Positions 7,772 to 40,374 are shown, numbered from the stretch's first letter. The stretch: 64,000 bases of DNA from Euglena gracilis (GCA_039621445.1 CP154954.1:31024012-31088011), one strand, 5' to 3'. Made by a program: numbers and translations. The notes: generated by a model from the sequence alone, not told the origin.

Positions 7772-7773
7772 TC

Positions 7774-7836: not shown

Positions 7837-7838
7837 CT

Positions 7839-7847
7839 TGGTAGCAG
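7839..7847 (+). promoter_or_regulatory. Primer-binding site TGGTAGCAG (complementary to an initiator tRNA-Met 3' end)
   Basis: 2 nt after the LTR-terminal CA; same motif at 30657-30666. Confidence 0.75.
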
Positions 7848-11371: not shown

Positions 11372-11945
11372 AAAGTTGAGAGAGGGAACAAAACAATCAA
11401 AAGAACGATGCGGAGGGATGAAGAGCAAAAAATGGGAAACAACGAAATCAACCCCACAAAGATCGCGGAAATTGTTAAACAATGCTTGGAGAGATTGATC
11501 AACAAAAAAGGGCGCAACATCAAGAAGGAACAAAATAGATTTGAAAAAATCATCCGAAAAAATATAAAGAACAAAAACAAAGGCGCTTCAAATGAAAACA
11601 CGCAAAACAAATCAAAAAGAAATTTGAGCATTTGCAAGTCAGTGTATATAAAGAACATTGCAAAGAAAAGGTGATGATAGCAACGTACCGAAAAAAGAAC
11701 GAGGGAAAACGAGATCAAAGTTAGAACAAGGCATGAGGAAAATAAACGGGATCGAAAAATGAGAGCACAAGATGCAGGACGTGGTTGTTCCATGAAGCAG
11801 AGGTTGAAGGGGGGAGGAAAGCGGGGAAAAACGGTGCGGATTGAATGGTCGGGGCGGAGTAAAGAAAAGGTCGAGGATTTGAAAGGCCATGGGAGAGGGG
11901 CGGAGCATCGGAATTTTGGAGAAAGGGAGACCACCGTATCAAGGA
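11372..11945. other. 574-bp A-rich foreign insert in G1 gag flanked by a 17-bp direct repeat
   Basis: ATCGCAGATTTGCAGAA at 11355-11371 and 11946-11962. Confidence 0.85.
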
Positions 11946-14329: not shown

Positions 14330-14720
14330 AGTTTGGTCAATTTCCAAAATCGCCGATATGGCGGTTTGCTTTGATTTGACCTTAGAATGATGATACATTC
14401 TCTTCCAACGGACATTCGCGATTACCGCGACGTTGGTCGCAGCATTCTAACGCTTTTGATAAGTTTTGTTGAGACACTATCCTTTGGATGCATCCCCCTA
14501 AAGCTTATCCCCCTTGTAAAAAAAATTTCCAGGATCAAGTGCGAGGCGCATTACTTCTTCCTGTGAATCACAGAAGCTGAATGGTTCAAAATTTGAATTA
14601 TGTCACCTTTTTTGGTGGGACCTGCCAAACGGTGTCCCTCTATTCGAGGATTTCCGTGGAGTAGCGTTACCACCTGTTCAAGAAAACAAATTTCGCGTTT
14701 GTTTCTTTGACAATTTTAAT
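14330..14720 (+). pseudogene. Dam-like (DIRS-type) N6-adenine methyltransferase domain in G1 pol
   Basis: DTFSSNGHSRLPRRWSQHSNAFDKF..LWMHPP..DQVRGALLLPV..EW..WWDLPNGVPLFE..FRVCFFD, lying between protease and RT. Confidence 0.75.
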
Positions 14721-17372
14721 TCTTCCCAAACTTCCCCCCTGAATGTTAGTGTTGGATGATACCGACCATGTAGGAGCCGATATGGCTTTGCTCCATTCTG
14801 CTGATAGGCATCGCCGTTCGGCCCCCTCTAGGGTTAATATGACCCATCAACAGGTTTCCGCTATCATTCAAAGTGCAGGACAGCACACCAATTCAGCAGA
14901 ACTTAATACGCGGATCAGTCACAAATTTTCTGGTGTTTCAGAGAATCCTGTTTACGCATGTGATATAGACCCCGCATATTAGCGGGCCTTTTGGTGTCTG
15001 TAACATTCAGCTTAAGGAAGGCGTAAAGCCAATGCATCGGAAATTTTTCCGTTGTTCAAGAGAAAGAGAGATATCTCTCAATGAAATGACTGAAAAGCCC
15101 ATAGAGCGGAAGTGGATCAACCCTTCGAAGAGTGAATGGACCTCATAGGCTTTTGTTCTTTCCTCAGCCCCCAGACCCAACTGGTCAGAAAAAGTGGAGG
15201 CTGGTACTGGATTATCGGTACTTAAACTCGCAAACGAAGGATGACCCATTCACGTTACCTCTATTTGAGGACCTCGTCGCAAAACAAGCGGATAACCGCT
15301 TGTGGGCAATTTTCGACCTGGGGGATGGATTCCACCGAATGCATCTGGATCCTGTTTCACAAGCCTATACGTCATTTGTAACATCCAAAGGTGTTTACAA
15401 ATGGACGGTTTTTCCAAGGGGTGTTAAAAATGGGCCAGCAATGTTTCAGCTCATGATCCAATGGATCTTCCGGGATTTACCGTTTGTGCTGGTATACATT
15501 AATGATGTTATGGTCGGAACCAGCCCTCCATCAGCGAATACACATTAGAATACTCTCGATGTTCAATATTGTGATGTTTGAGCTGTGTTAACCGCTTATC
15601 TCAAACACAGACGTTTCGTCAAACGTGCTAAAATGCCCTTATTTCGCGAAACAATAAAATTTTGCGGTTACATTCTGGATAATGGCCAACGCCGAGTTGC
15701 GCGTAGCAGACTTGAGGCTATTAAGAAATGTACACTGAAGTCATCAAGACCATCACTCATTTGAACGGGTTTTTGTGAATAGCCCAATACTACGCCGTTT
15801 ATTTGAAAGATTTGGCGAAAATCGCGGTACCTCTAACGAGGCAGCTCAAAATATTGCGCACCAGAAAATACAAAATTCAAATTGGACGCAGACATGCGTT
15901 AATCTCTAGAGAGCATTAAAAAGCTAACGCTTGAAAAGGTCGTACTCAACATCGGGGATCTCTACAAGCCTTATGTGCTCGAAGTCGATAGCAGCGATCA
16001 TGCTGTAGGCGGTGATCTAAGCCAGCGTGACGCAGACAACGAGTTACGCCCTGTAGCATTTTTCAGCCGGAAGCTACAAGTGAAGATTGCAAAGGCCAAG
16101 TCAAATGGAGTAAAAGCGGTGAAACCGCGCAGAGGTACCCTCCCTGGTACCCTTGACGTTTTCCGCGTACCCTCCGACATTTTTACGTCCCTCCGTATGG
16201 ATTTGTTTAAATTACAACCTTGCAAAGGATCAGACGGCAATCTTTACGACTATGTCTTTGTCGTCGTCTGCAGGCTGAGTGGTTACATAGTAGCCATTCT
16301 ATGCCAAAATGCAGGGTTGACCGCGCAAATTTTAGCACTTATATTTATCGAGAAGTGTATTTGCCTAATGGGTCTACCGAATGAGAATGTCAGTGATTGA
16401 GATCATTTCATCTCTTCCGGATTCTTGACTGGGAATCACTGGGAATCGAACATCATTTTTCCATTATATGTATCGCCCGAACGGCAATGGCCGCGCCGAG
16501 GCAGCAGTGCAGGCTGTTGTAAATATGCTCCGCCTCTCACTGGCTGACTCGCGCCAGGCCTCAGTCCAGGTTTTGCCATGGTCCCTCTATTATATAAACA
16601 CCCCACCGGGTTTAGTTTTGCCGCACTCCCCATACATAACTGTTTTTGGGCGAGAACCGCCGGCGATTGGTGATATACCATCAGAGAGACCGGCTGGAAG
16701 TATCGTAACCTGTGAGACATGGTTCTCTGAAGTAGTGACTCTCAAAACTACTGTTCAAAACCGTATCAATGATATCTATTCTCAAAATAGAAACAAATTT
16801 TTGCAAGTATTGAAAGCACATAGCTACATTCCTGGTGGCCGCGTATGGGTACGAAATAGTCGCACAAGCATGCAAGCTTCCAAGCTAGACCCCCTCTGGC
16901 TGGGACCCTGTTAAAATCCTGAACGCGCTGGTAACAATGGCCGCTATAGGATGGCACTGCCGAACGGGATCGAGAATGTTCACATGGATGATTTCAAGCC
17001 ATATCTGTCCCCGCCTAATAGCAAAGCACTACCGTGCCTTTTTTTTAAGCCCTGTACAAAATTACTAGAAACGGAGGATTTTGTGGAAGACAAAATTCTC
17101 GATAACAAAATTGATAGGGGTGTTCATTACTGGAAGGTCAGTTTGAAAGGATATGGGCTATAGGAGGACACCTGGGAGCCAGCCTCCAGTTTTGTCGGTT
17201 ATGTACAACAGGACTGGAAGCTGTGGAATAAAAGAAAAAACATAGACTTTTTTGTGAATGATTTTTGAAACTGGACTATAGGCCTTTTCCCCGCCTCTCT
17301 GTTTTCTTCCCACCCCCAATTAATGTTTCTCTTCCTTTTCCACACCTCAAAAAGTTACTTTTTCTCGCCAGA

Positions 17373-18774
17373 ATGCAGGACCCAGGTGGGAGCGGCCCAG
17401 GCCTGATGCTCTCCCTCCCTACCTGCCAAACTCCTATGCGGCGGCCCCACCGGCCAAAGGGACGCCAGCATGTGCGGTATACGAACCCCATCCTGCCGCT
17501 TATGCGGCTCAGGCACGAATGCCACCCCCCCCACTCAAATGGCTCAGGCACAGATGCCATACCCCTCTCAGTCACATATGTCAGCGCCCTCTCGGGTACA
17601 AATGTCGCCCCCCTCTCAGGCACAACCGGCATCTGTCGCTCCTGCGGCCCCGGTGCCAATGGGAGCTGCATATGCGGCACAGCCTCAACAGGCATATCAA
17701 GTTTCAACGCAACAACCACCACCTCAGCTGGCACACCAGGTTCCGATGGAACAACAACAGCACGTGAGGCAATGACAGGAACGTCCAATGGGGCAGGCGC
17801 ATTCTGCCATGCATGCCTCACCTCCCATCCTGTATACACCACTATGCAATCTCTCAGCAACCCCAACCACAACCCGTACAGGGTGTGCCACCACCACACC
17901 TTGTACACGCCGTACAGGCGACGGCACCTCCTCCTGCTGCTCATCCCGTCCGGGAACCCGCGGCCAAGACCGCAGTCAGCAGCAGTGGTATATCCGCTTA
18001 TGTGATCCTTGCGGCGCATGAGACACCCCAAGAAGCACCAACGGTGCCATACCCCGCATTCACCGCGGAATTGGTGAATCTCGCCGAGAAAACCCTGGGG
18101 ACCGCCTTGCGCGTTAGCGCAATCGAAAGAGCAGATCCATCCTTGGAGGTGATGTGGGATATCCACTGTCGTCAGATTTTAGTCCTGGCCAATGGACCTA
18201 TTGCACAATGGTACGCGTGTGGCAAACTCCGATGACAGGAAAAGTGTACGTCATGCCAGGGGAATATCCCCCCGACGTCAGCATGTGTTCACTGGGTATC
18301 CAGGTACCGCCGATTCCGCGGATACGTCATCGCACAGGTGCATTCACCGAAAAAATGCGAGAACAGAGCCCCTCAACAGAGGAAAACAGGACAGGTGATA
18401 TTCCAGCACAAACATTGCAACCATCACGAATTTTTCGCGACTCCCAGTCCCCACCTCATATGCCGAGACCACCCCCACCCGAATATCGAAAACCCCCAAC
18501 GCAATATGCATATCAGCCAATTACGCAACCGTCAGCTGACCAACCACGTTTCCCTTTTCCTGCGCATCTGGAAGCTGGAAGCCAGATTCCTGTACAACGG
18601 GACCAGCCTGTGGCTCAGGAGTCCACACCCTGGGCTGAGGAAGTGGATCAAGCTGAGGCCGATTGCCGAAGGCATGGATGTGGAAGAGGAAGTACCAATG
18701 GACATGAACCTCTTCAAGAACCCCGCTTAACCTCACATCAGCAACCCATCCAATACTACCAATCCCTGGAATAA
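17373..18774 (+). pseudogene. G1 ORF3
   Basis: Pyrimidine tract-AG-ATG at 17373; RVSA..MWDIHCRQ..W..DVSMCSLGIQVPP..TGAFTEKMREQSP. Confidence 0.8.
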
Positions 18775-20991
18775 CTCCAAGGCCCTCGGTCTAGAGAACG
18801 CAGACATGCGTCACAGCGTTACAGGCCGGCAGATCTGTTTGCGGATTTACACAAACGGTGCAACGGTATTCAAAAATCATTTCCGGATATCACCGGCATT
18901 GAAACCGCGCTTGCGGATTTGAATACCCAACACAAAAACTTACAAACCACCACTTCCCATTTACAAAAAAGCGTTCAAGCACTTTCTACAAGGGTCTCCG
19001 GACTCCAACCATCCTTAGATGGACAAACTGTTCGCGAAGTCGAACTACCCCCTGATTATCAGACATTTTACGACTAAATGCTTGCAAAAAATCAGAAAAA
19101 CTAAAAAGAATTTTGTGAAACCTTGATGAGGAACGAAAATTCGGTCCCCCAACAAACTCTCACACTATAACGACAAATTTCGATGTTGCAGAACCGACTT
19201 TCTACAATGATGGACGGCAGAACCGCTGAAAAGGCGGTAGGGGTAACCCAACCCACGTTGCGCACCTCAACCACACAAACCGAGAATCGGATGAACGCCA
19301 TTACAACCGCGATGGAAACTTTGGCTAAACGGGTCCAATTCTTGGACACCGTTTTCCAAAGCTTCAGCGCATTTTAACACCGTTGTTGACAAACTACCAC
19401 TTCTGGATAAGTTACCCCTATACCGCAAACGTATTAAGCGTTTGCAGTGTGACGTTGAACGAATTTGGGTCCTTTTCCAAGTGGTCGGTTCGTTAGAACA
19501 AAGTATCCAAGATTTTGCATTGAGTCTGGATAAGATTCATGCAAAGTCCTGCAACCCCCCGCACATTGCCCATGAAAACACAGCTTTCGGTGGTCAAAAT
19601 TCGACTCCCAGTTCACAAAGTGCTGTTCGCGCTTCAACAGAAGCATCTTCGGATGGCAGACATCCAACTCGCGAATTTGTGCATCAAATTCGCGACTCGT
19701 TGGATGCCAATCCTTCCAGAGGCGCAGTATGCACACCTCTACAAGCATCTTCGGATGCATATGCCCTACAAGCATCAACGGATGCACGTGATCATGCACA
19801 TGCTTAGAATCGCGATTACAATCGCTTGTTTATACTCCAACTTAAGATGCCCCCCGTAACGGTGAATCTTCAGATGAGGAACCGGTTTTTCACAAGGACC
19901 GCGAATCCTGGGGTTTTACAACAAGACCTCCTTGAATCGGGACTGATTCGTGGTACGAGCCATCCCCATACCCCGGGTATTGGCCATGGATCGCGAGCGC
20001 GAAACGGGGGAATCGCCGGCGGTTCCCCGCTTTGTGGGTGAACAACAGGCTTCCTACCTCCCTGGGATGTTACCAGTCCCCGAATCGCGGAACCGCGAAA
20101 CACAACCACAAAATTAGCAGAATCGCGATATACCAAACACCCTGTAGGGGGGGGGGGGCCAATCTGGCCCCCACTTTGTCTTTTCCATTGGCAGATCTGA
20201 CATTTGCAGGTTTTTCTGTAGCAATTCTTGTACTCCCCAGCCAGCATGAATCCTTCCCTTTCAGCTACCTTCAGCGCCCAGGGGCCACAGACATTTGTAG
20301 GGTCTTTCCCCAGGTACTTGACACACTGCCTCAAATTTTCCTTTTCAATCTGCTCCTCCCTGCGCCTTGATTCCTCCATCAGCCAATTCATTGCGCCAAA
20401 CCTTCCCAAAACCACAGCAAGAAACAAACCAGAAGTCAAAGCCCCAAAGGGTTCATACTGCTTGCCACCTGCACAAAGTTACAGATGACAGATTGTGGAA
20501 TGTACAAATTAGGAATCTCTGGCCTGGCTCTGCTTTATTCTGCTGCACATCTGGGAGCGAATCCCACACTCCCCTCCTCAAAAACCTTCCCAAGCTATGT
20601 CAGCCTTTGGCATCTGGGAGTCGCTCAAAGATGGGCTTCACCTGTGCCACCTGCCTTTCCCCCGCCCTCGAGCCACACAAGTCGTTTTTCGAGCAATTGC
20701 CGACCCCACCATGCCACACCCGTGCATGCCGTGGCCCACTGCCTGCGGTTTGTGCACAGGGGGCAATTGGTTCCCTGGAGCAATGGCTACCTGAGCAATC
20801 GTCGAAGACGTGCCACCAGGGCCTGCCACACAGGGGGGGGGAGGGTTTGGGGCAAAAGTTACCTGGGCAATCATCCCGGAAGATGTGCCACCAGGACTTG
20901 CCACACAAACCGGCATGCCACTGAAAATTCGACCCGGAGCTTTCGACAGGGGGCAAAAAGAACAAGGCAATCAGGTTAACACCCGGTCCGC

Positions 20992-21687
20992 TTAGTCCTC
21001 GAGTCGCTTGGCAGCCTTAAGCTTCAGCCTTCTCCTTCTCCGCTTCCAACTGGTCGTCTCATTCTTCACTCTTGACTTTGGTTCGTCTGCACCTGGCTCA
21101 GCCACATCCTTCTTCGGGACTTCCCAGTTGAACGGTTCTTCCTCGTCGGTGGACTCGCATCTGACCTTTGACAGCTCCTTCTGGCTTGCTTCTTGCACTG
21201 CATCACCAGCATGTACACCTGTGGCATGCACAGCTTGAGCATCTTCTCCATCACCACTTCTGGCATGCAATGGGTCCCCATGGCCCAGCTGTACATCCCC
21301 ACATCCGCCTTCATCAACTTCAATGTCACCATGTCCAGGGCTGTAATGCCCGATGCTGGCATTACACACCTCAGCATTCATTGACTTGTCATCTTCAGCA
21401 TGCACAACTTGGACATCTCTGCAAGGCTCATGAACCCTTTGTGTAGGGGGGGGGCCAATCTGGCCCCCACTTTGTCTTTTCCATTGGCAGATCTGACATT
21501 TGCAGGTTTTTCTGTAGCAATTCTTGTACTCCCCAGCCAGCATGAATCCTTCCCTTTCAGCTACCTTCAGCGCCCAGGGGCCACAGACATTTGTAGGGTC
21601 TTTACCCAGGTACTTGACACACTGCCTCAAATTTTCCTTTTCAATCTGCTCCTCCCTGCGCCTTGATTCCTCCATCAGCCAATTCAT
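20992..21687 (-). CDS. Intact 231-aa ORF of mini element B: KVAEREG..EY..CKCQIC, acidic region, basic tail KRRRRRLKLK
   Basis: Part of the listed 247-aa ORF, taken from the first usable ATG; crosses the LTR/internal border as in element A. Confidence 0.6.
   Translation of the reverse strand: MNWLMEESRRREEQIEKENLRQCVKYLGKDPTNVCGPWALKVAEREGFMLAGEYKNCYRKTCKCQICQWKRQSGGQIGPPPTQRVHEPCRDVQVVHAEDDKSMNAEVCNASIGHYSPGHGDIEVDEGGCGDVQLGHGDPLHARSGDGEDAQAVHATGVHAGDAVQEASQKELSKVRCESTDEEEPFNWEVPKKDVAEPGADEPKSRVKNETTSWKRRRRRLKLKAAKRLED
21430..21441 (-). promoter_or_regulatory. Self-priming PBS CAAAGGGTTCAT of element B
   Basis: Plus-strand ATGAACCCTTTG (21430-21441) is the exact inverted copy of CAAAGGGTTCAT at 21741-21752 inside the 5' LTR. 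Confidence 0.85.
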
Positions 21688-24600
21688 TGCGCCAAACCTT
21701 CCCAAAACCACAGCAAGAAACAAACCAGAAGTCAAAGCCCCAAAGGGTTCATACTGCTTGCCACCTGCACAAAGTTACAGATGACAGATTGTGGAATGTA
21801 CAAATTAGGAATCTCTGGCCTGGCTCTGCTTTATTCTGCTGCACATCTGGGAGCGAATCCCACAACCCATGATACTTACGGTAGCATGAGTACCATCCTG
21901 GATGCGCATTTGCGCACGCCACCACAACAACACCACACAAACAATTACAATGGAAATCGCCGATAGCAACGCTACTTCAAAGGTACAATTACAATTGCTA
22001 ATAAGGTCAAGCCACAATGGGACGGAGATCCCACAACTTGGAAACTATTTTGGCGTGACTGGGTACACTACTTGGACTTGAAGGGTCCAGCCCAACACGG
22101 GAACCCCGATGTAATCAAAATGGAATTTATTGGTTGCCTCTCCAAGGAAGAAAAAGAACGTGCCCGAAAACTTGTGATCCGGGTTCGGATTTCTTTTGAT
22201 GAACTGGTTGACCAATACGCGTCAACTTGTTCAAGCCTGATTTCGTGAATTACGCTGGAGAAAAAATGGCGGTAATTCGCGCCTACTGACAGAAAATGGA
22301 AGGCAATGGTATTCCAAATGGTTGGATTGGATGCTGAAGTTGATGAACTGGGAGAGAACAAAATGAAAGAGCAATTCGCTTCGGTTCTTCTCCTTTTCAT
22401 TTATACAATTATCAAGGACATTGACCGTGATGAACTCGCGGACAAAAAACTTACACTTGACCAACGGTGGAATTATTTTTCCAAACAAATGAAACTCTCA
22501 CAACTTTTGGGACATATTCAATCGGCTTATACCCACCACCCAACCGCTGGTCTCCCTAGCGGTACGGTAAGTGCCCTACAAAGGACGTCTTCTCCAAAAT
22601 CTCCGCGGGAATACGACAAACATACAAACTCCCCAAGTGGAGACACAAAAACGCGCTACCCGTGCTACACTGACCAATCTACTGACAAAACGTGCTTTTT
22701 GTGCAACAAATCGGGGCATACGCGCCGTGAATGCCCCCACCCTGATACACGAAAGCGGTATCAGAGTCCAAGGGGATCGCAATCCTTGCCGATCTCACGC
22801 TCCTCTGGATTTCACACAAATCTGGACAATCACAGTATTTGGGTTTTCTGCGGACGTGATTGCGCACCTTGTGGTCGCTCACCCCGACCCCCTTACAAAC
22901 ATGATACAAATCGCGATTCATCGCGGTCACGTTCGCAAAGTGGGTCATCTTCTGCGCGATCGTCATCCGGGAAACCGGATTACAACAGCCGTGGTCGAAC
23001 AGGATAAGGTTCACCAAGACCTCCAAGGGGTGAAAGCCCATCAACGTCACAAAACCGACAAAAGTGTTCCCTTTGTGGATCACACACCCATCACTCGTCC
23101 AAATGTTACTGTTCTCGCTCTCCCCGCCCGAACCAACGTCACCGTAGTGAAACAAAACACAACAAAATACTCAAGGTCGGGTTCAAAATCTCCTCTTTAG
23201 AGGAGGGAACCCCGGCTTCGGGCAGGGAGGTGGATGAGAACTCCAAATACTCGCTGGAGGAATACCGCAATGCGGTCCGCGCATTATGCGCTATCTATTC
23301 ACACAAGAAAACGATAAACAGCCGAAGTGCTGAATCGGACCTGGAGTAGGGGAGCCCGAGGTCTGTGGGCACGAACCTCTGGGCTGATGAACAGAGAGAA
23401 GTAGGACCTGATAAACCTTACTTTCCCTGCTCACCTGCCTTTTTGGTCGGTACCCGGAAAATGTTCACGTACCCCACCCCCCACCCCGAATTTTTGCCTG
23501 GAATGCTGAGCAACGTAGGAACGGGATCGTAGGACAGTTGGAGAGACAACAATTTTACACCGGATCCTGCACTTTGCCTACCCCCATGAAACTTATGGTC
23601 TAAGCGGAAATCTGAACACAAAATTTTTCTACCAAGTGCAAACTTTGGTTGACACAGGGTGTCACATTCCCCTTCTCTTTCAAAAGGGGTTACTTCCAAC
23701 CTCCCCATGTGCCCCATGTGCTGTGGTGACTTGGGATGCTTTTTGGACATGGTCCTCCCCATAATACCCAAGCACCACTCACAACCCCCACACATACAAG
23801 TATTTCTGGGTACCTGGAGTTATGAAGCGGGTATCCGCGGGTCTGACACAATTTTTGGTTTTCCGTTCTTCCGTCAGAACCGCCTTGTTGTGGACTGCCC
23901 CTCCCTCGGTTTGCACACTACTTCACGCACACAACCCACACCACCGAATTGCCCCCCAAGGCGACTTCCCAGACCTCCCCCCGCCTTTCAACAGACGCCC
24001 AACTGTGCTGATGAGATTTTTTTTACGTTGCATGGTACTCTTATTCCAAAACAACACAACACAACTTTTTTTGAACCGAAAACACCGTTTCCTACACCAG
24101 GGGTGAAGAAAAAGCTGCCACCCTACACACTACACTTTTACAGAACGATTTCACATGCGGTAGGGAAAGCCAGTAGCTTAACTCCCCACGTTTCACTGGG
24201 TTCCAAGGTGAAAGCGCAAGGGCCTGAAGTTATAAAGGTGTCGAGTAGCCGCCCAGCCGCACAACGTTTACGTTTTCCACCAGGTGTGTCGACTTCGGAC
24301 ACCCCTGTACACCCCCCAGCAGCTACAACTTTCAACACACCCGTACACACACTACACATGACTGACATGCAGTACCAGACCGACACTTCCTGCCAATGCG
24401 CACATTGTAGGAGAATTTCCAAACAACCTGATTTTCATTGTGGATGTATTGTTGAACCTTCCAGACTAACCGCTTTACTCAACGATCAGAGTACACTTGA
24501 TAGAAGAACCGGTACCGAGTTTACCCTGACAACCGAACGAGAACACAACACACCGGGTTGTTACCCGTTGTGTGTTGAAGTACATCGACAACTGGACAAA

Positions 24601-24869
24601 TGCGGAATCGCGTCCTTATTCGGAATCGCGAGAATCGCACAGGAGCATCTCCAATGGCAGAAAGCTAATTTCTCTAACCACGAATGGCAGAATGCCAATC
24701 CGTCCAATGTCCCCGGTTCCAAATGGCAGAATGCAAACAACAAGTGTACTTTTCACAAAACCCTTGTTACACTGGGTACAATGTCTGATGAAGTGTCTGC
24801 GGACACACCGCATTACCAAGTAAACTGTGTTTCAGCCCTCCACAGGACTGAAACCGCGACAGTTTTCAA

Positions 24870-25320
24870 GAAAGGCATTTGGAATGTACTCAACTTTGGA
24901 CAAGATCGCATTTTGGAAACCTGGTTTTCCAAAATGGCTCCAATCACGAAGCGGATGGACCTACAATTGGACATTGATGCATTTTTGTGCAAAGCACGTT
25001 CTCGTTTGCCCAATTACCGCTCAAGTCATTCAAATGTGTTTGATAAGTTTTGGGGTGATGTAGCCCTGTGGCTACATCTACATCTGTAATTCACTTCTCT
25101 TGTATTTTCACAAGATACTTCGGGATCAAGCACGCGGTGCGCTGCTCATACCGATATATCCCGAAGCGGAATGGTTCCAACAACTGACGTATGTCACTTT
25201 TCAGTGGTGGGATTTACCAAATGACACCCATTTATTTGAATATTTTTGTGATGTCATTTTACCTCCATTGAAAGAAGTCATTTTTCGTGTTTGTTTCTTT
25301 GATGCATTCGGAACTGTTGA
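24870..25320 (+). pseudogene. Dam-like N6-adenine methyltransferase domain in G2 pol
   Basis: LDIDAFLCKARSRLPNY..NVFDKFWGDVALWLH..KILRDQARGALLIPIYPEAEWFQQL..WWDLP..FRVCFFDAF. Confidence 0.8.
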
Positions 25321-28300
25321 CCACGCCGACAAATTTCTACGGGAAAAAGGTCAGAATGACCAAAAATTCCAACTATCCGTAGTGATAGAAAGCGGTGGTC
25401 AACATCGCAAACCACAAGAACTTATGTACAACGATCAATCGCGAATTGAGTGATGTTCTAGAACATCCTATCGATGCGCATGACATAGATCCTGCAAATC
25501 GCGGACCTTTTGGTGTCTGTAAAATCGAACTCAAAGAAGGTGAACAGCCCATGCACCGGAAATTATTCGATTTTCAGGCGGAAGAGAACAGGCTCTCCAT
25601 ACAATGATCGAAAAACTGCTTGAACGCAAATGGATCATACCACCCAAAAGGGAGTGGACCTCACAAGCTTTTGTGGTACCCAAGCCTCCCGATGCTTCTG
25701 GACAGAAGAGGTGGAGACTTGTGCTGGATTACCGATAGTTGAACTCACAGACAAAGGACGATCCATTTCCGTTACCGCTCATCAGGGACTTAATTAAAAA
25801 ACAGCCTAAAACCGACTCTGGTCTATTTTCGACTTAGAGGACGCTTTTCACCAGATTCACTTACACACTGACTCACAACCATACACCGCATTCGTCACCT
25901 CCCGCGGAGTTTACCAATGGACGGTGTTACCAATGGGTGTAAAGAATGGCCCAGCCATGTTCCAAAGAATGATACAATGGATTATACGAAACTTACCGTT
26001 TGCAATGGTATACATTGATTATGATGTGCTGATAGCCACACACCCTCCAATTACAAATTTGGGTTGCGGTATCCTTGATATCCACTAACGCGATGAGCGA
26101 TCAGTACTGACAACGTTTCAAAAACATTTGCTGTTCGTCAAAGGTGTGAAAATGTATTTTTTTTACTGAAACGATCAAATTTTGTGGACGTTGTTAAGAG
26201 AAAGGAGAGCATCTCAAAGCAAACTTAAAGCCAAAAAAGAAGTGGACACCTGAAAACATCAAAACAATCACACGTTTAAATGGATTGTTTGGTTTATGGC
26301 AGTAGTACGCGATTTCATTGAAGTATTTCGCGAAAAAAGCGTTACCACTGACGCGACAACTCAAAAAACGCGCTCCTGACACTACAAAGATACAATGGGA
26401 TGATACAATGCCAGAATCGCCAACGAAAATTAAACAACTGATGTTGGAAAACGTTGTACTTGACATTGCTGACCCGTACAAACCTTATTTCCTGGAAGTC
26501 GACAGCAGTGACTGTGCTGTCGGCGGTGTGTTGAGTCAACATAACTCGTCCAATGAACTGCGCCCTGTAGCATTCTTGAGCAGAAAGCTACAAGGTGAGG
26601 ACGGAAAAGGACAAGTCAAATAGAGCATACGAGAAAAGGAGACGTATTCCATTGTCCTTTTCCTACAAAAATTTCGAAGTTGCGTCTCCAGTTCACTCGT
26701 ACAAATACTTGTATTGACAGACCATGAGTCTCTCCAACATTGGTACACCGAAGACTTGAACAAAGAGATGTCCACAGTTTGCCGAAGATGCCGTTTGCAC
26801 GACTTTTTTTAGTCAATTCAACTTGGTGGTAGTTTACGCACCAAATCATAGTCAAAATATCGCAGACAGATTTTCCTGTGCACCCTGGCATTACCCTGGC
26901 AAACCTGGCGAGGGTGATGCCACGTTCCACGGAGGTCCCGAAACCGTCAATTTCACAAAGCGCGCAGACGTCGCTGACAACTTACTTGAAAAATTTCCTG
27001 TTTCGCATATTTGGCGGCGGATGCTGATCACCTCCATACGGGGAGAACGGCAACGCGGCAGAAAGCCGGGCCCCCGCGGCGTTGCGCCATCAGAATCCCC
27101 ATCCCCTCTCTTTATTCGCGAATGGGATTATTCCAAGGATGATTTTTACAATGGTATCGTACAAAGACCGCGTAATGGGAAATTGGTTGAGAATTGTACC
27201 TTATCGCCTTTACCTTTTGTTTTCCGAAATTATACTGGCTACAAATACTGCATACCCTGTGACTTGGTTGATGATGTACTTTTATGTTATCACAACCAAG
27301 GTCACCCTGGGCCCCCAAACTTCTTTCTTTGGTGGGTAGCAGGTACTGTACAACTCTGACCGAAAAAGAATTGTACAAGCACTGTTTACAAATTTCGCAA
27401 CGGTGCCAAATTTTTCAGGCTGTCAAACGCGCACAGGAACCCCCCCTGGTACGATGGACTTCTTCCCCGTACCAAATGACATTTTTACTTCCCTTAGCCT
27501 GGATTTTGTGGAGTTAGAACCTGGCAAAGGAACAGATGAAAAATTGGATTACGTTCTTGTTATCTTCTATCGGCTGAGTGGGTACATCGTAGCCATTCCA
27601 TGCCAGAAAGCAGCGTTGACAGCACAAGTTTTGGCACAAATGTTTTTAGAAAGATGCATTTGCCTCACTGGTTTACCCAATGAAATCGTGGTTCATCAAG
27701 GCCATTTGAGTTCTTCCCGAATTTTAACCACTATTTCTGGTTTACTCGGAATTGAGCAGCATTTTCTATCATTTACCGTTCCAAAGGTAATTTTCGCGCT
27801 GAAGCAGCAGTGAAAGCTGTAGCTAATACGCTACGAGTTTTACTGGCCGAATCGCACAACGCCTGGCTACAAGTAATACCCTGGTGTTTATTTTACATCA
27901 ACACTTTACTGGGTCTGATATTACAATACTTACCATACAAAATCGTCTTCAGACGAGACCCTCCAGCCATTGGCGACATACCGTAAGAACAACCCGCTCG
28001 TTTTAGTGTGAGCTGTGAAACATGGTTCTCTGAAGTGGAATCACTGCACACGGATGTGCAAAATCGCGCAGCCGCTGTACACTCACAAAAACAACGAAAA
28101 TTCTTACAGCATTCCAATTCACCGATATACAACCCAGGTGACCGCGTGTGGGTTCGGAATAGTAGAACCTGCATGCAATCCACGAAGTTGGACCCCCTCT
28201 GGATCGGACCATGTGATATCCTCGATCAGTTGGGTACAAGCGCTAGAAAGTCGCTGTACCCAATGGTGTTGAGGATGTGCACACGGATGACTTCAAACCA

Positions 28301-28876
28301 AACCTGATTCCACCAAATGGTAAAGCAACACCCTGCCTCTACTTCAAACCACGGTCAAAACTGCCTAAAACAGATGATTCTGTCGTTGACATAAATCACA
28401 ACCACAGGGATGGACATTACTGGAAGGTGCAGTGGAAAGGGTATGGTCCCGAATAGGACACATGAGAACCAGCAAATAGTTTTGTTGGTTATATCCAACA
28501 AGATTGGAAACTATAGAACAACTGAAACAACATAAACATTTCTGTAAATACCTGCTAAGGGACAATCTACAAAATGTCCAAGATTTTGTCCATTGTATGG
28601 AATTTTGACAAAATGTATGATGGGCGGACGTCAAAATGTATAACGGGCGGATGCCAGATCATTTGTCCCAAGCGAAGGACTTTCTGCTAAAGGACTACGG
28701 TCCTATACAACACACTTTTACACTTGGAGCTACAATTTTCATTTCCCACTGGTTGCAGACATATAAATATTTGTGTGTGTACACATTTGGTTGCACGCGT
28801 ACAATGTTTTCGTACAACGTCTCATTTCTCTACTTCCCCACAGCTTAGTGCTGGATTCTATCTGCTTTCTCTCAAG

Positions 28877-30155
28877 ATGGATTCTGGAGGAAGGGGACCT
28901 GGTCCCCCATCATCCCTACCGTATGTTCCCCCAGGACAACCTCCTACAGGAGGAACCCCTCACTCACAACCTCCTTTTGGAGGAAGAGCACTTGCACTCC
29001 CTCGTGGAGGGCAAGTCCCCGTTCGGCATGTACAAGCTGCTTCGGCAGCAAAGCCCGCAGTGGCAGCCCCTCATATACAAGCTGCTTCGGCAGCAAGACC
29101 CGTAGCGGCAAATCTCACTCTGACACAACATGCGGTCTCACGTGTTGCTCCAGAGCAACCTACACTTGGTGGCTTAAAATCTCAACCTACGATTCCACAA
29201 AAAAAAAGGAATCTGCATACGAACAGTTTGCGGTGCCGCAGCCGCGGCCCCCGAGAAGATACGATACGGCTACCAGTAGCCATCACGCTGCTTTTGCGAC
29301 AGTAGAACAACAGTATGTCGAATATGTACAACGACAATAGACCGAACAACTTCGTAGTCAATTCCACCAGACTAAAACTCCACAAAGGCAGTATGCCACT
29401 GAACAACTTCCACAAGGGCAGTACGCCGCACAACCGGGACCTCAAAGGCAGTACGCCACTCCTGTGATGCCTCGGTTCCCCAAGCACATGGGTGAACTGA
29501 TAACGGCCTCCACATATACAATTTGCAACGCTCTGCGCATGAGCGCAGAGGACAGACCGGCTCCATTCATCCGAGTGATGTGGGATTCGTACTGCCGAAA
29601 TTTGCCTGCAATCGTCAAAAAACCTATCACAACCTGGGACATGTGGTCCCAGAGTACGATAGCGGGTAGAATATTCTTCCAACCCGGAGAATCCGGATTT
29701 CCAGAAAACGTAACCCTCAGGGACCTGGGAGTCCTGGTCCTGCCTGTGCTGCGCGGAGTGCATCCTGTGGGTGCTTACGCGGAACACGTGCGTCGTTATA
29801 CCCCCGGCCTCACAGAAAGTGAGATGGGTGACGTTCAAATGCTAGAACCAATATACCTACCATAAAAACGCCCCCACGCATGCTGCCTGTCCGGAACTGG
29901 GAGGCTGGTGTGCAATCACAATACGTCACTGAGGCCGAAGAGCCATACGACGACAAATATGCTGACGAAATGGCCGAAGATCCTTATGACGAGTATACAA
30001 CGGCAGAACGTGAGCCGGAGTATACAACGGAAACAGACGAACAACCTCACCCACAACCTGTACAACCTCAACCACAACCACCGACAACCCCCTACGTACC
30101 GCTGCCGGAACCGACAGGGATACGGGTTGTCGGAGAAAACCCCCTGCGTCCATAG
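28877..30155 (+). pseudogene. G2 ORF3
   Basis: Pyrimidine tract-AAG-ATG at 28877; LRMSA..MWDSYCR..W..GFPENVTLRDLGVLVLP..PVGAYAEHVRRYTPGL. Confidence 0.8.
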
Positions 30156-30543
30156 AGGACTACATTCACTGTGAACGAGTGCCACAATCTTTGGTTTTCG
30201 CTCACAGAACAAAAGGCGAACCATACCGTTGTGTAGCAGGCATGTCCCAGCTCTGTGGGATATCTGCAGAGTGGGTTCTGTGACGGTCGCACCTCTGTGG
30301 AAACCACAGCAGGTAAGATCGTGGCAGACCCTTCTGGGATCTCCCCCTGGACACGTCAGCACTTTTCTCTCCTTCCCCCACAGGTGGTATTCTTCACTGT
30401 CATCAATTCCAAGTTGACCATTGGTTTTGTCAGAAGGAAAAACCTTCAGAACAATCGAACTTGACTCCAGAAGAAACTTCTGAAGTCTTTGTCTTGTGCT
30501 TTGTCTGTTGGGGAATTGGGAACAAAAGTGGAAAACCACTTTT

Positions 30544-30654
30544 TGTTACTCCAAAGACTTTTCCCTACCATAAGTAGGCTGCACACCAAGGTGGAAGCGA
30601 AGGGCTTTTTCAGAAAGTCCCAAAAAGGGGAAAAGGGAAAGCTTTGGACGTACA
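30544..30654 (+). repeat. Putative 111-bp hairpin LTR between the G2 3' end and the G3 5' end, followed by PBS TGGTAGCAGA (30657-30666)
   Basis: TGTTACTCCAAAG...CTTTGGACGTACA; the two ends pair. Confidence 0.72.
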
Positions 30655-33600
30655 CTTGGTAGCAGATTTAGGCAACGAACCTACACAGACGTTCCACACA
30701 GAGAACCTCTGTGGTTGACTGGTGGTGAGGATCGTACTGAGCCGTGAAACACGGTGAAAGCACTGTTCTTGACCCCTAGCCAACCTTTAAGCAAGGACAC
30801 AGGTCTCAGAAGGCTCTGTTCGGTATTCGCCGATACAACCTTTCTGGTCCCTGTTTCACTGCTTATTTGTGTGAATTTTTGGGTTTTTGCCTTTTTACCC
30901 ATCTCAAAAGATGCGGAGCACAACCCCCAACCACAAATTTGATTATGACTTGTTGATGAGTTCATTGACCAATATTGATGAAGATTGCGGGGATTGGAAC
31001 GGTTCGAATGAAACAAGTTCAAATTCCCGACTCCCCAAGCAACAAGAAGACACATTGCATCAATTGTCATTGTCACAAGGCGAAACGCCTTTATTGTTGC
31101 AAGGGGGCAATGAGCCTTCCTCATCATCATTGTTATTGATTGTGCGGGATGTGGGTGGCAACATGCCTTCCTCCATCCCGGTGCAGCCATCATTGATGCA
31201 GCGAGGGGATGAACCCCTTGCACCCTTACACTTGGATACTCATGTTACCCATGAACAGAGTGAGATGTATTTTCCCTTTGCTATGTGTACACCCAAAAGA
31301 TCCCCGGCGGAAGCACCGGTGGGCCTTTTGGAGTGCAACTCGGTGGAAGCACCGTGTTTTTTCCAACCCCTCCCACTCAATTACCAGCCCCCACACCATT
31401 TCGCGCATTGCCGGGATTACCCGCGGAAACTGCGGTTTTCCCTGCATTGCCGTGGAACCTGGATATGCGTCTGGTGGTGCCGGAAATCTCTGGTGCCGTT
31501 TCCGTTGTGGAGGATTATGGTGATGATTTGGGGGATAACCTCACCCCGGGTGATGTTTACCGAATTCTCGGTCAACTCCCAGCGGATCACCCGCTGAGCA
31601 AGCAAATTTTGCATGTCCACCAATGTGTTGCGGAATGCGCAACCATGCTCAACAAAGTTTTGCAGTTTGATGAGGACAATCAAAGGGTTGTCAACACCAA
31701 ACTGGAATATTGCTGGAATTATTTGCAGGAAATCGGCAAATATTGCCAACACAATTTTGAAAATGCGGGGAAAGACCTTCCGCGTTTTCGGGAAAGTGTT
31801 GACAGTATTTTGCGCATCCAACTCCCACAAAATTTCCAACGAATCACTGAAACCCTGCATGAAGCGGAAACACGGAATGATTCCAAGTTTCTGCATGTGC
31901 AAGATGGTATGAGCCATCTTTTTGGCAAAGTGGAATCATGTTCAACCATGCTACTGCAATTGCAGCAACAGTTACAAGCGCAAAATGCCACCCCCAAAAT
32001 GCCGGAAATCAGTAATTTTGTTGCGGTGGAGCATTTTGCCGCACTCACCACTTCTTTCCAAGAAGCCCAACATCTTTCTCGGAAATCGAGCATTTGAAGC
32101 AATTTCAGGCGAAAGTGAAAGAAAATTTTGTTCCCCGTACGCAAATCCAGCTTTTGGAGGAGCGAATTTCACATTTGTAGCCATTGTGCCGCAAACCAGG
32201 ATGGATTACCCTCCTTGAACGCGAAAATCGCGGATTGCGCAAAACGGTTGGATTTCGCGCAACAACAAATGCAAACGGACATTGGCGGTATTAATGTCAC
32301 CGTTGTCGGTTTGCAGGAGCATGTTTCCGCACTTTCCAAGCGAATTCCTGACATTAGCGGTATTCAAGCCGCTATTGGGGAATTACAAACCCGTTGCACC
32401 TTGTTGTCCACCACAGTAGCGCAAATTTGCTCAATTCCCAATGTTTCGCGCGCTCGGATATCCGAGTCACCGGAATTTCGCTCATTTTATAACAAAATGC
32501 TTGGTGACAACAAGGAAACCTTGCAAGCGTTTTGCACGAGTTTGATTCAACCTGAGGAATCTGTGAATCGGAATGCCCGATCCATGCAAGATGAGGTTTC
32601 ACGGTTGGATGGACGAATTTCTGCGTTGTTGGAAAAGCCAACCGCGGAAAATTCGCGCACCACCGCGGAAACTCCATTCAATTCACCCCACCAATTGCAA
32701 ATTGTCTCAAGTGCAGTAAAAGCGCTTGCGGGTCAACTCCGGAAGGTGGAGGAGTCCCAACGACAACTTGTCCAAGAACTACACTTGGTTTCTGAAAAGT
32801 TACCACACTTGGAAGATTTTTCCCGTTACTGCAAACGCATTAGGCATTTGGAGACTGAGGTTGACTGTATTTGCGGCCAACTCCAGTTGGTGGAACATTT
32901 GGAAGATACGGTGCATGACCTGTCCGCGAGTTTGGATAAAATGTCCGCTCCGGTACCGTTTGTGCCACCACCCACCGCGGTAAGCGCTGCAGTAGGTATT
33001 CCAAATGTCCCGGAATCGCGTCCTCAAATTACGGTTTCTGCAGTAGGAATCCCTACATCCACCGCGAATTTGGTACAACCACCCGCGAAAACGCGAATAG
33101 TACCACTTTTGCATTTGCCCACACCACAAACCCACTTTTCACAGGACATTTCCGATGGGGAAATTGGTCCACCGCTCGAAAATTCGAGTCTCCACCAAGA
33201 AATTCAACATTCCAACCTTGTACGAGGAATGAGCCAACACCCCACACCTGGTATTAGTCATGTGTCGCTTTCGCGATCATACCAACGGGTTCTGGATTAC
33301 CAGATCACCCATCGGGTTTTCAGCGGGAAACCCGCCCCACCGGGAGAATTTCACCGCATTTTTCGCAATTCCCGCAGGAAAATCCTGCTACCCCTACACT
33401 TGGTGCGGGAAATCCTGCACGGGGTACACGTGGAGCGGAAAATCCGCGAAACGCGTTTGGTGTTAAGATTTACCCGGACCAAAACCCCTGGAATACGACC
33501 GAGGGTCAACGGGTTACTCAGAGAGACTTCAAGGGCACCATCGTAATCGCGAACAATGTGAAGCCACAATGGGACAGGGATCCAACCACATGGAGACAAT

Positions 33601-36600
33601 TTTTTCGGGACCCACCCAAGACCGGAATCCCGAGGTAGTCAAGATGGAATTCATCGATTGCCCACCGAGGGAGGAGCGAGAACGCGCACGCAATTTGGTG
33701 ATACGTAATCATACTCGAGTCTGGTCACCAGGATTACCCTGGAGAAGAAATGGCGACAATGCGCGCCATCGGATCGCAAATGGAAATACATTGACCTTTG
33801 GTATGCCAAATGGTTAGCACTTGCTTCCGAAGATGATGAACTTAGCGAGAAGCAAATGCGCGAACAATTCGATGCGGTTTTGTTGCATTTCACACCATCC
33901 CTCGTGAAGGATATCCATCGCGAGGAGTCGGCAGGGCATGAGATGACTCTTGCCCAACGTTGGAATTATGTGTCAAAGCATCATAAGCTCACACAAGTTT
34001 TGGGACAAATACAGTCCTCTTTTCAAACGCATCCCACCGCGGGAATCCCTGCGGGTGCGGTTAATGCGTTGCAAAAATCACCCATGTCACCGAGATCACC
34101 CACCACGGACGGAAAACGCGGAATCAGCGTTCTTCGGACCAAGGCACGGATAAACTGTGCTTTTTGTGCAACAAATCTGGTCACATGTCTCGGGAATGCC
34201 CGAATCCCGATGCACGAAAGCGTACTAGAAGCCCAAGGGGCTCGACCTCCTCACGGGGATCGGGTTCCTCGTCGTTTTCATGTCAATTGGGAGTTTCATG
34301 GTCTTAGGAGAACCGCTTTAGCGGTAGTAGGCCCAAGTCACCATCGCGTGATGGTCGGGAAAACCGCCCCCCTCGCGGTCGGTCACCTGGTCCCTCTACC
34401 CGAAAACGGCATTTCAATCGCGACTCTTCACGATCTCGTTCGCGAGGTGGATCATCCTCTTCGCGCGAGTCATCGGGGAAACCCTGGTACACCGGTCATG
34501 GTCGACGGGAAACCCGTTCACCACGACGGTTTGATGGAAGAACGGAATACCGTTCCCCCTGTTATGCGGAATCCCGCCACAAAAGCCGTTGTTCACTTTG
34601 CGGTTCCAAAGACCATCACTCACCCAAATGTGCCAGATCTCGTTCCCCCCGGCCCGGCTACGGAAATCGCGGTAAGCGCCGCGAGGACCGTGGTAACTCC
34701 TCCATCCGGCAAAAAGTTGGTTTCAAGATTTCTTGTTTGGAGGAGGACACCCCAGCTTCGGGCAGGGAGGGGGATGAGACCTCGGATGGGGAATTTAATG
34801 AGGCCCGAATGGCGGTGCGCTCATTGAATTCCATCTATTCCACCAAAAAGTCCGTTGCCTGCTATGCGGCCGGTTCGGTTTTGGAGTAGGGGAGCCCGAG
34901 GTTCGAGGGCACGGACCTCTGGGCTGATGAACAGATGGAGGTAAAACCTGATCAACCTTGCCCCCCCTGCCCATCCGCCTTCACGGTCAGTACCCGGAAT
35001 TATTTCGGGTCCCCTACCACCCACTCCACATTTCCGCTCGGAATGCTGAGCAAAGTAGGAAAGGGTTCATGGGAAAGCTGGCATGCAAAAGTATTTCCGC
35101 CATACCCTTCACTTTGCGTACCACCAATGGAATCACTCGTCCAAGGGGAAATCCGCATTCAAAATTTTTCCACCAAAGTTAAAATTTGAATTGACACTGG
35201 TTGTCGCATTGCACTGCTTTTTTGGTTGGGGTTGATACCGACCCCTCTCTTGGTAAGCGCCAAGAAACCGATCAAAGTTACAACCGCGGATAACACCCCC
35301 ATGTGCGGTGGTGATTTGGGATGTGTGCTCGAGATACTCTTGCCCATCTTTCCGAAGCATCTCTCACACCCCCCACAATTACAACATTTCACCAATATTT
35401 GGGGTTACGAGTCCGGAATTCACGGGTCTGACGTAATTCTGGGATACCCATGTTTACACCAGTACCGATTGGTTGTGGATTGCCACTCCCACGGTTTGCG
35501 CACAGCACCCACCACCGCATTGCCACCCAAACCACCATTACCATTGGCATCCACTATGACGACCACCACTTTTCCAACACCGTTATCCACCACACCAACA
35601 ACCGTTTTCCACACCCGGGGTACGGAGAAAGCCTCCCGCCTACCCAATGAGACACCTACATGCGTTCCACATGGGGTAGGGCAAGCAAGTAGCGGTACCC
35701 CCGCCGTTTCACTGGGTTACAAGACGAAAGCCCAAAGGCCTGCAGTACGTACGGTGTCGAGTAGTCGCCCAGCTACACCACCACTCTGTTACCCACCAGT
35801 TGTGCCGAATCCAGGCACACCTGTACAAGACTCACCGGCTAATGCCACCGACACCCACTTACCCGCACACCCGTCACACCATCACACTTCCTTCCAATGT
35901 GTGCACTGCAGGAGAATTTCCACCCAAATCGGATTTCGATTGTGGATGTTTAGGTAAAAATCCGACACTAATCGCTGTTCCGAAAACGGAATCCACACCC
36001 AAGGATACACTTGGTTGTAGCCCGCAATGCGCGGAGATACACCGAGTAATCCAACAACGCGGATTAGCCTCGTTGTTTGGAAACGCGAAAAGCGTCATTC
36101 CTAAATACCATCCTGATCACACTTGGTATGGATTTGATGCGGAATGAGGAAAACCCCATACTGTCCAAACTACCTTGGTATTAACTCTTGAGGTAGTGGA
36201 AGACAGCCCGCATGTTTGTGGATCCATTCATTGTGTTTCTTCACTCCAACCCGGAAATCGGGTGCATGAATACACGAAACGCGTATGGAATGCTTTCAAT
36301 TTTGGTCAATAACGCATATTGGAACGATGGTTTTCCAAATTCGCGACATTTGCTGATTCCTTTGAATTGGCATTAGGAATCGATTCCTTTTCATCCAATG
36401 CACATGCCCGCTTGCCACGTTATTGGTCTCAACACTCCAACGCATTTGATAAATTTATCGGATGAGTGGTTGAGAAAATTCTGCGGGGTGAAGCCCGTGG
36501 AGTTATTCTCATACCTATCATTCCGGAAGCGGAATGGTTCACCCAACTATCGTATGTGTGTTTTCATTGGTGGGATTTACCCACTAATGAACCGATTATT

Positions 36601-36601
36601 G
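30544..36601 (+). mobile_element. G3: 5' half of a Gypsy element (gag, protease, Dam-like MT), truncated at 36601
   Basis: Gag ORFs 31285-32097 and 32128-33546 are homologous to G1/G2; CFLCNKSGHMSREC ~34157; IDTGC ~35190; MT GIDSFSSNAHARLPRYWSQHSNAFDKF..KILRGEARGVILIP..EAEWF..WWDLP 36370-36600. Confidence 0.92.
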
Positions 36602-39500: not shown

Positions 39501-40374
39501 GGTACACTATTCCCCCATATACCGTCTCACCTTTGCGCCGCACTTTTTGCTTTTTCTTACCCTCACCCTTTCACCTTTTCTGTCGCGAATTGGAAAGGAA
39601 TGCCTGGGTTTCTCTTTTTCTTTCCCCGCACAAGTCATTTTCTGAGGCACTGTTGGCCAACGTCCCTGAATTTTTTTTAAAAAAATCGAAATCGCAGTCT
39701 CGCTGAATGAAAGCTGCCAAAAAAAAGGAATTTCACCGAGGGGGTATCGTGGGACTTAAGCCTTGGGGTAGAGTGCCCAGAGTTGGTTTCGCTCATAATT
39801 TTCAGATTTTGTGTTCAAAGACCCGTTTCCCATGCTTGTCGGAGGAAAGGGGTGGGGGGGCTTCCCCCGAAGACCTGATTTTTCAGAGTCCCCCAAGGTG
39901 CCCGATATTATGGCTGGGGGGGGTCAGACTCTTAACAACGATTTTAAAAAAAAGCGACAGGATCCGTTTCAAAAAAAAACACAGAATTTTCGCCCCCCCC
40001 AAAAAAATTCTATTTCACTCTCCCCGTTTTTGTTCGGCGGGGGGGCAGAAAAACAGGTCCGACTGACGTCGCAAGGGAGGGGGTGGCGGCTGCCGCGGGC
40101 GTCGGCAGCCAAAAAAATTCCCAAAAATCTCAAAAAAAAACCCCGGTAGGATTACCCAAAGTAAGTCAACCGCCACGCCAGTTGAATTGGAACCCCAGCA
40201 AATTTCAAGAAGAATTTGAGATTTCGATTTGAGAATCAGAAAAGAAGAAAAGTCAATTGGAGACTTGAAGAGCAAAAAGATTAATTCAAATATCAAAAGG
40301 AAGCCAAGGCGTTCATTTCCACATTCTTTTTCCCACTCAACACCTGAATTAAAAGGTGATTGCCCACCATCTCA

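Follow-up and report, generated by a model that had tools for sequence, protein, structure and literature searches.

In a 64,000-nt stretch of Euglena gracilis DNA (CP154954.1:31024012-31088011, assembly GCA_039621445.1; hereafter the window, from whose start all coordinates are counted), four copies of one retrotransposon family, designated G0, G1, G2 and G3, were revealed by self-blastn and by tblastn with the related protein P0094. It is very probable that G1 to G3 and the 5′-truncated G0 are old, dead insertions of a single Ty3/Gypsy chromovirus family, whose Pol comprises a protease (PR), a variable linker, a minimal Dam-type (PF05869-like) class I methyltransferase domain of about 165 aa, reverse transcriptase (RT), RNase H, integrase and a chromodomain. 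Transposable elements (TEs) abound in the window, which is eukaryotic and contains no N. Read from the sequence, G1 to G3 are all pseudogenes, and the window copies encode nothing functional today. This kind of element is the "DAM-LTR" (LTR, long terminal repeat), which is already in print (bioRxiv 10.64898/2026.05.21.726589, May 2026), in the one relevant paper that full-text searching retrieved; that preprint covers DAM-LTRs both with and without chromodomains, so the layout is not an unreported one, as an earlier annotation of this DNA, here called the sequence-only reading, had allowed.

That reading had pointed to a conserved block of motifs upstream of the RT in three diverged copies, and the block was recovered in each of them:

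14305–14756, plus strand: Dam-like domain of G1, distributed across three frames and interrupted by stops; D-x-F at 14392–14406 and LWMHPPK at 14482–14502
24865–25354, plus strand: Dam-like domain of G2, in two frames (24865–25086 and 25112–25354); motif IV, LWLHLHL-stop, at 25066–25086
36271–36600, plus strand: Dam-like domain of G3, in a single frame with 2 stops; 14 alignment positions that include motif IV are missing

In G1 the block runs from D-T-F-S-S through RLPRRWSQHSNAFDKF to LWMHPPK, and WWDLP follows past frameshifts. The G2 block proceeds from DAFLC through SNVFDKFWG to LWLHLHL and a stop, and is resumed in the next frame with KILRDQARGALLIPIYPEAEWF, WWDLP and FRVCFFD; this second frame reads on in frame into the N-terminus of the RT. 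The G3 block begins with DSFSS and SNAFDKFIG, lacks the W..LW.NPP part, and continues with VVEKILRGEARGVILIPIIPEAEWF and WWDLP. The description of motif IV as HPP in G1, mutated in G2 and deleted in G3 was thus exact. The block also occupies the same place in pol in every copy, past the protease site (13453, 23645 and 35190 in G1, G2 and G3, respectively) and ahead of the RVT_1 match where one was located (15186–15674 in G1 and 25750–26166 in G2). When the G3 peptide was searched against the window by tblastn, only G2 (E 2.5e-31) and G1 (E 6.7e-15) were retrieved as relatives of the block. A hidden Markov model (HMM) made from 41 homologous domains from outside the window, run against its six-frame translation, matched G1 (E 3.5e-14 and 7.8e-08), G2 (E 6.9e-11 and 5.6e-22) and G3 (E 2.4e-26), and no other site significantly, the next best having E 0.58. 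Since both searches singled out the same three sites, the block is not a chance resemblance. The same model found no further Dam-like domain in the window, and the neighbouring Dam-type methyltransferases of DIRS elements that had been assumed there were not recovered; a neighbouring DIRS-like element bears an open reading frame (ORF) resembling a C5-cytosine methyltransferase, not Dam.

The identity of the domain was established through its homologues. A profile derived from the alignment of the three blocks was searched against 1.84 billion representative proteins and matched 92 of them at E ≤ 1e-3, 31 at E ≤ 1e-10; with the G3 peptide as query among longer proteins, none of 52 candidates scored. 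A Pfam scan covered 20 of the 92 matched proteins, and Dam (PF05869, gathering score 28.1 bits), the family of small phage-type DNA N6-adenine methyltransferases, was recovered at the aligned site (E ≤ 0.01) in all of them except P0078, with nine reaching 28.1 bits. These matches are partial, spanning about model positions 22–117 of 169, and their scores are low (16.7–39.7 bits). A Dam-like methyltransferase between PR and RT, as had been proposed, is supported by the relatives: wherever a scanned protein held both domains (9/9), Dam lay N-terminal of RVT_1, and the order typical of DIRS was seen in 0/20. Dam and a Ty3/Gypsy-type RT were found united in one Pol in P0094, P0095, P0096, P0022, P0046, P0010, P0043, P0024 and P0057, and weak RVP or Peptidase_A3 matches preceded Dam in P0011, P0019 and P0038. 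P0094, an open protein of 1677 aa, has Dam at residues 459–529, RVT_1 at 712–882, RNase H at 952–1092, Integrase_H2C2 at 1237–1297, rve at 1316–1415, SH3_Tf2-1, and Chromo at 1616–1651. Its overall order, PR-Dam-RT-RNaseH-IN-Chromo (IN, integrase), is shared by P0095, and Chromo exceeded its 25.1-bit cut-off in both (38.4 and 35.8 bits, respectively); open full-length polyproteins of the same order are P0094, P0095, P0022 and P0046. The assignment of the window family to the Gypsy chromoviruses was likewise upheld, by RVT_1, RT_RNaseH and weak SH3_Tf2-1 (E 0.12) and Chromo (E 0.072, 13.5 bits) matches in G1, whose chromodomain region aligns with that of P0094 by tblastn, and by the full domain set of this close relative.

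The fold was approached by modelling the relative and not a window copy. The AlphaFold2 model of P0094 residues 405–591, built with 37 homologues, reached a predicted local distance difference test score (pLDDT) of 88.9 and a predicted template modelling score (pTM) of 0.82. Foldseek returned PCIF1/CAPAM as its top match (E 2e-4), and VIA-align gave Z scores of 10.2 for PCIF1, 9.6 for PH1948, 8.3 for METTL5, 8.3 for T4 Dam, 7.4 for EcoDam and 7.3 for M.TaqI, with many other class I methyltransferases close behind. According to the model, the P0094 domain has the fold of a class I S-adenosylmethionine (SAM)-dependent methyltransferase, nearest to N6-adenine enzymes, which defines a fold class and not a substrate. 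The closest solved structure, PCIF1/CAPAM (6irx, 6irw), shares the Rossmann-type core of an N6-adenosine methyltransferase (root-mean-square deviation 2.9 over 129 residues), but is only 11–12% identical, acts as an RNA cap methyltransferase and comprises about 480–490 residues in the crystallised chains.

That the domain was stably acquired, as the sequence-only reading had held, is indicated by comparisons among the copies, whose codons were registered through tblastn alignments to P0094, with bootstrap confidence intervals (CI). The ratio of nonsynonymous to synonymous divergence (dN/dS) of the Dam block was 0.20 for G2–G3 (CI 0.11–0.41, 109 codons) and 0.22 for G1–G2 (CI 0.19–0.75, 125 codons); for G1–G3 the point value was undefined and the CI was 0.12–0.32 (71 codons). 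The linker between PR and Dam gave 0.78 for G2–G3 (CI 0.48–1.15, 186 codons), and the integrase 0.13–0.16 for the pairs G0–G1, G0–G2 and G1–G2. As estimated from the sequences, the Dam domain has evolved under purifying selection between the copies, with a rough dN/dS of about 0.2. Synonymous sites are saturated (dS >1.2 or undefined) and dN is far lower; therefore, the copies were inserted by active sublineages that had long been separate and had each retained the domain, rather than arising by duplication of a single dead chimera. A tree of 46 domains united the window copies in one clade (SH-aLRT 95), which lies within a clade of 17 rows (SH-aLRT 97) that also includes P0094, P0095 and P0096.

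A second conserved feature was noticed about 130–200 residues upstream of Dam, where a CxxC-x10-CGC motif occurs at 24397–24447 in G2 and, decayed, at 35898–35927 in G3. It is kept in 8 of 18 homologues examined (P0094, P0095, P0096, P0003, P0004, P0010, P0011 and P0026), all of which belong to the clade nearest the window. This motif may be a small zinc-binding module.

It might be argued that the block is a DIRS fragment that became nested in Gypsy copies by accident, or the product of a chimeric assembly. DIRS-like elements are indeed present in the same window, as recognised by eye, and the end of G3 coincides exactly with the boundary to another repeat family. This explanation is already contradicted, and we consider it extremely improbable, since the block sits at the same position in three dS-saturated copies, runs in frame into the RT N-terminus in G2, precedes RVT_1 in nine independent proteins from other assemblies and follows the RT in none of those scanned, and has no other Dam-like counterpart in the window. 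The same location in saturated copies, the purifying selection and the open relatives of the same order altogether indicate that the domain is inherited as part of the chromovirus family. Membership of the family in DIRS was also considered and rejected, given the order PR-Dam-RT and the DDE-type integrase (rve) of P0094. Within 13401–18502 (G1), none of the three frames matched Phage_integrase at E ≤ 1, and two of the three frames of 12001–26998 likewise gave no match to it at E ≤ 0.01, with G2 beyond 26998 and G3 lying outside the scan.

Several observations weigh against the reading of these copies as Dam-bearing chromoviruses and of their domain as a methyltransferase. Pieces of the window matched no Pfam family at E ≤ 10, and whole frames gave no Dam at E 1, so that Dam homology is detectable only via the homologues. 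The nearest intact relatives themselves fall under the Pfam cut-off, with 16.8 bits for P0094 and 16.7 for P0095 against the required 28.1. Saturation of dS, together with a codon alignment guided by protein similarity, makes the dN/dS values rough. Neither an LTR pair nor a target-site duplication was found for any copy by a find_repeats-type search, self-blastn and word-7 blastn of the flanks, the copies being old; hence, the label of LTR element rests on the pol domains. RNA on G2 was near nil, with 8 and 7 reads at 90% likeness in two RNA-seq runs of 12.9 million records each. Motif IV of such methyltransferases reads (D/N)PP(Y/F/W), also given as D/N/S-PP-Y/F/W, and the canonical (D/N)PP(Y/F/W) occurs in no window copy, which read HPPK (G1), HLHL-stop (G2) or a deletion (G3). 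Finally, eukaryotic DAMs expressed in dam-deficient E. coli produced no rise in N6-methyladenine (6mA), according to the preprint (bioRxiv 10.64898/2026.05.21.726589).

The residue at the catalytic position deserves closer attention. The Asn of motif IV is present in 33 of 43 homologous domains and is replaced by His in 4, by Cys in 5 that form one clade, and by Tyr in 1, with G1 and G2 carrying His. To our knowledge, the residues described for this position do not include His. By starred branches of the domain tree, His arose at least three times, and the nearest intact relatives have HPMF and HPPA as motif IV, the nearest of all reading HPM. Because the catalytic Asn is thus His in this lineage (HPP in G1, H in G2, HPM or HPP in relatives), methyl-transfer activity may have been altered or lost. 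Across 38 aligned domains, H variants included, D49, F51, W63, W74, L79, W80, P83, P84, G102, P107 and W114 are near-invariant.

In active relatives, the Dam domain would be made as part of Pol and, in the model set out in the preprint, would place 6mA on reverse-transcribed DNA or on an RNA-DNA hybrid; the mark would then let new insertions enter permissive chromatin, with the chromodomain guiding integration. In the His lineage, the domain would possibly be kept for binding or for another role. Two views of its present function were considered. In living members of the lineage, the domain could be active as an N6-adenine DNA methyltransferase and write 6mA on the element's cDNA despite the His, a possibility for which the purifying selection, the near-invariant pocket residues even in H variants, the modelled fold nearest to N6-adenine enzymes and the excess of 6mA that DAM-LTR insertions show over other LTRs in three species (bioRxiv 10.64898/2026.05.21.726589) all speak. 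We regard this as rather unlikely, given that His is not known as a residue of this motif position, that the nearest relative has even HPM, and that the E. coli assays reported in the preprint were negative. Those same negative assays are consistent with a pseudo-enzyme in this lineage, kept in Pol for something other than catalysis, for instance to bind nucleic acid or SAM, to recruit a host methyltransferase, or to serve as a structural spacer separating PR from RT. The variation of the catalytic position, with repeated origins of H and a single clade of C, and the persistence of selection in the H-bearing clade of the window point in the same direction, and we hold such a loss of catalysis to be quite possible, short of probable. 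The remainder of the pocket, including the P-P that follows the variable residue, is nevertheless conserved, which would fit a retained chemistry equally well.

With regard to published systems, the preprint describes five DAM-LTR lineages (Chlorophyta DAM-chromovirus-like, Chloro-Ochrophyta, ichthyosporean, Pyropia and Euglena), in which LTR-borne DAMs derive from DIRS DAMs; DAM-LTRs are stated there to be absent from Metazoa and Streptophyta, chromodomain-bearing LTR elements make up 30.9% of DAM-TEs, and Asn-Pro-Pro is almost universal in DAMs, which were screened with hmmsearch at E ≤ 1e-5 (bioRxiv 10.64898/2026.05.21.726589). The window family shares with these elements a Dam-like domain inside a Ty3/Gypsy Pol, here together with a chromodomain, and the idea of combining a writer with a reader was likewise proposed there; it differs by having HPP or HPM in place of their Asn-Pro-Pro. 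In the clade nearest the window, Pfam Dam reached E ≤ 1e-5 in one of eight scanned members (P0096). Because most of this clade is weaker than the threshold given in the preprint, the window lineage may not be among those described there. It can be proposed tentatively, and with more doubt than confidence, that G1 to G3 and their metagenomic relatives (P0094, P0095, P0001–P0011) form a DAM-chromovirus lineage outside these five, missed by the E 1e-5 screen, in which the catalytic Asn became His (Cys in a sister clade) under purifying selection, leaving a methyltransferase-derived module of altered or non-catalytic function, preceded by the lineage-specific CxxC-x10-CGC and carried by head-to-tail units that show no detectable LTRs. 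Such a lineage would also speak against the link proposed between DAM-LTRs and hosts that bear 6mA, if its host were an animal or belonged to another group without AMT1 and 6mA.

The methyltransferase domain of the DIRS1 group displays the same series of motifs (D-x-F-A/S-S, W...LW-NPP-F, a hydrophobic strand with W-F, and WWD-P), a likeness drawn by motif. In DIRS elements, the methyltransferase follows RNase H and is accompanied by a tyrosine recombinase, according to both sources (PMC5890265; bioRxiv 10.64898/2026.05.21.726589), whereas in the window family the domain precedes the RT and is associated with a DDE integrase and a chromodomain. SymbioDIRS-Dnmt3 and KnitGypsy-Dnmt3 (PMC5890265), as well as the EpiLTRs of the preprint, also captured a DNA methyltransferase into Pol, but theirs is a C5-methyltransferase, and no C5-methyltransferase-like domain is carried by G1 to G3 or by P0094.

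The remaining parts of the four copies are as follows:

G1, plus strand: gag 12355–13173 and pol to 17244; at least 18 stops and several frame changes
12355–13173, plus strand: gag-like ORF of G1 from the ORF list, 272 aa stop to stop, with a remnant of a Cys/His knuckle
13336–13590, plus strand: protease region of G1, L-I-D-T-V-C at 13453–13470, 3 stops (tblastn of P0094 residues 16–108)
15186–16082, plus strand: RT and RNase H of G1, with RVT_1 (69.5 bits) and, at 15894–16082, RNase H (RT_RNaseH_2, 46.5 bits) by Pfam
16113–17244, plus strand: C-terminal part of the G1 integrase, SH3_Tf2-1-like region (16843–16989) and chromodomain (17089–17190), by tblastn and Pfam
G2, plus strand: gag 22276–23007 and pol 23494–28549; at least 27 stops and at least 6 frame changes over pol
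22276–23007, plus strand: gag-like ORF of G2, with a CX2CX4HX4C knuckle in its translation and DNA homology to G3 33733–34244
23494–24447, plus strand: protease of G2 (L-V-D-T-G-C at 23645–23662), fast-evolving linker and CxxC-x10-CGC, by tblastn
25750–28549, plus strand: RT (25750–26166; RVT_1, 58.9 bits), RNase H (26396–26701; RT_RNaseH_2, 66.4 bits), integrase and chromodomain of G2, by Pfam and tblastn
G3, plus strand: gag 33709–34889 and pol from 35040, interrupted at 36601/36602 by a different repeat family
33709–34889, plus strand: gag-like ORFs of G3 from the ORF list, with DNA homology to G2
35040–36270, plus strand: protease (I-D-T-G-C at 35190–35204), linker and decayed CxxC of G3, by tblastn
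1025–4138, minus strand: G0, from RT to chromodomain in one frame with 6 stops, by tblastn and self-blastn

An aspartic protease is therefore recognisable upstream of the RT by D-T-G-C in G2 and G3, by D-T-V-C in G1 and by tblastn similarity to the P0094 N-terminus. The order RT, RNase H, integrase was found in G1 and G2, where RVT_1 is followed by RT_RNaseH_2 and tblastn is colinear with P0094, residues 1025–1291 of which have no counterpart in G1. The gag of G1 has DNA-level homology to 23175–23662 in G2 and 34882–35323 in G3. G0 is 69.8% identical to P0094 residues 634–1672 over 1041 aa, and it is uninformative on the Dam domain because its 5′ truncation falls just downstream of the expected site. 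The repeat that cuts G3 was identified by self-blastn, 36602–39501 corresponding to 52195–55089. Neither the P0094 domain nor the complete protein retrieved a relative from metagenome contigs. The contig pieces of one DNA run that mapped onto G2 at ≥90% likeness numbered 16570; a size-fractionated RNA run yielded 52 reads on G2, from both strands, too few to judge the expression of the family.

Every unit also contains a long coding-like region ahead of gag, in which a part rich in P and Q is accompanied by a conserved "VMWD..CR" block and by a coiled coil (17245–19870, 28550–33708 and 7600–12355, and 746–322 on the minus strand). In G1 and G2, only about 120–320 nt separate the pol stop from the start of this region, to which a stretch past G0 is homologous as well (tblastx E 2e-13 to 1e-30). 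Because it closely trails the pol stop of the preceding unit, the three anciently diverged units stand head to tail with no detectable LTRs. A tandem duplication in situ of one dead copy, considered in view of this arrangement, was rejected, since dN is far below dS across pol.

The C5-cytosine methyltransferase-like frame mentioned above encodes 221 aa at 55355–56017 on the plus strand, within the repeat unit 52195–56100, and contains the motifs P-C-T-E-F-S and E-N-P; it is the single such copy in the window. Its match to Pfam DNA_methylase (E 4e-4, 20.4 bits) lies under the 22-bit cut-off, and phmmer against PDB sequences returned nothing meaningful. It is located downstream of a DIRS-like RT/RNase H recognised by eye (K-D-A-Y-Y-H-I-P, Y-L-D-D), for which Pfam RVT_1 gave no match at E 0.01. 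Fifteen homologues of the frame were retrieved, among which P0101 contains PF00145, P0108 joins a Dam domain directly to a C5-methyltransferase-like domain, and P0102 ends in a Gypsy-type pre-RT motif. The element resembles SymbioDIRS-Dnmt3 (PMC5890265) and the EpiLTRs of the preprint.

Other features were observed in the window. An insertion at 19870–21870 breaks the pre-gag region of G2 and contains two direct repeats of 419 nt that are 99.8% identical (20150–20568 and 21446–21864); it has the look of a small, young element bounded by terminal repeats. Another direct repeat pair of 322 nt (9059–9380 and 10637–10958, 99.4% identical and 1578 nt apart) lies beside low-complexity frames rich in Gly, Asp and His, and a long (GA)n tract occupies 7210–7604. 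Two adjoining open frames of 254 and 215 aa, with one stop between them, were found at 42258–43670 on the plus strand; they match no Pfam family at E 0.01 and possibly encode a protein of another mobile element. A distant integrase/chromodomain remnant of another Gypsy element, 28–31% identical to the P0094 C-terminus, lies at 63186–63826 on the minus strand. No Rfam family reached its gathering score and no tRNA was found in the window, nor was there a match to a dinoflagellate spliced-leader motif. Taxonomic leads from the Atlas were weak, pointing to Mollusca and Preaxostyla for the Dam domain and to Arthropoda for the integrase part. The observed/expected ratio of CpG was 0.86–0.97 in the G copies, 0.55 in the DIRS-like unit and 0.72 in the whole window, and that of TpA was 0.55.

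How mobile elements interact with the epigenomes of their hosts can be seen in retrotransposons that combine a DNA-modifying enzyme of their own with a reader of chromatin. This locus contributes a divergent clade whose catalytic Asn has been naturally replaced although the domain is still conserved, and it also shows that some of the diversity can escape profile screens at E 1e-5. With the natural variants NPP, HPP/HPM and CPP, one can ask whether the domain has any enzymatic function, which the negative E. coli assays of the preprint left open (bioRxiv 10.64898/2026.05.21.726589).

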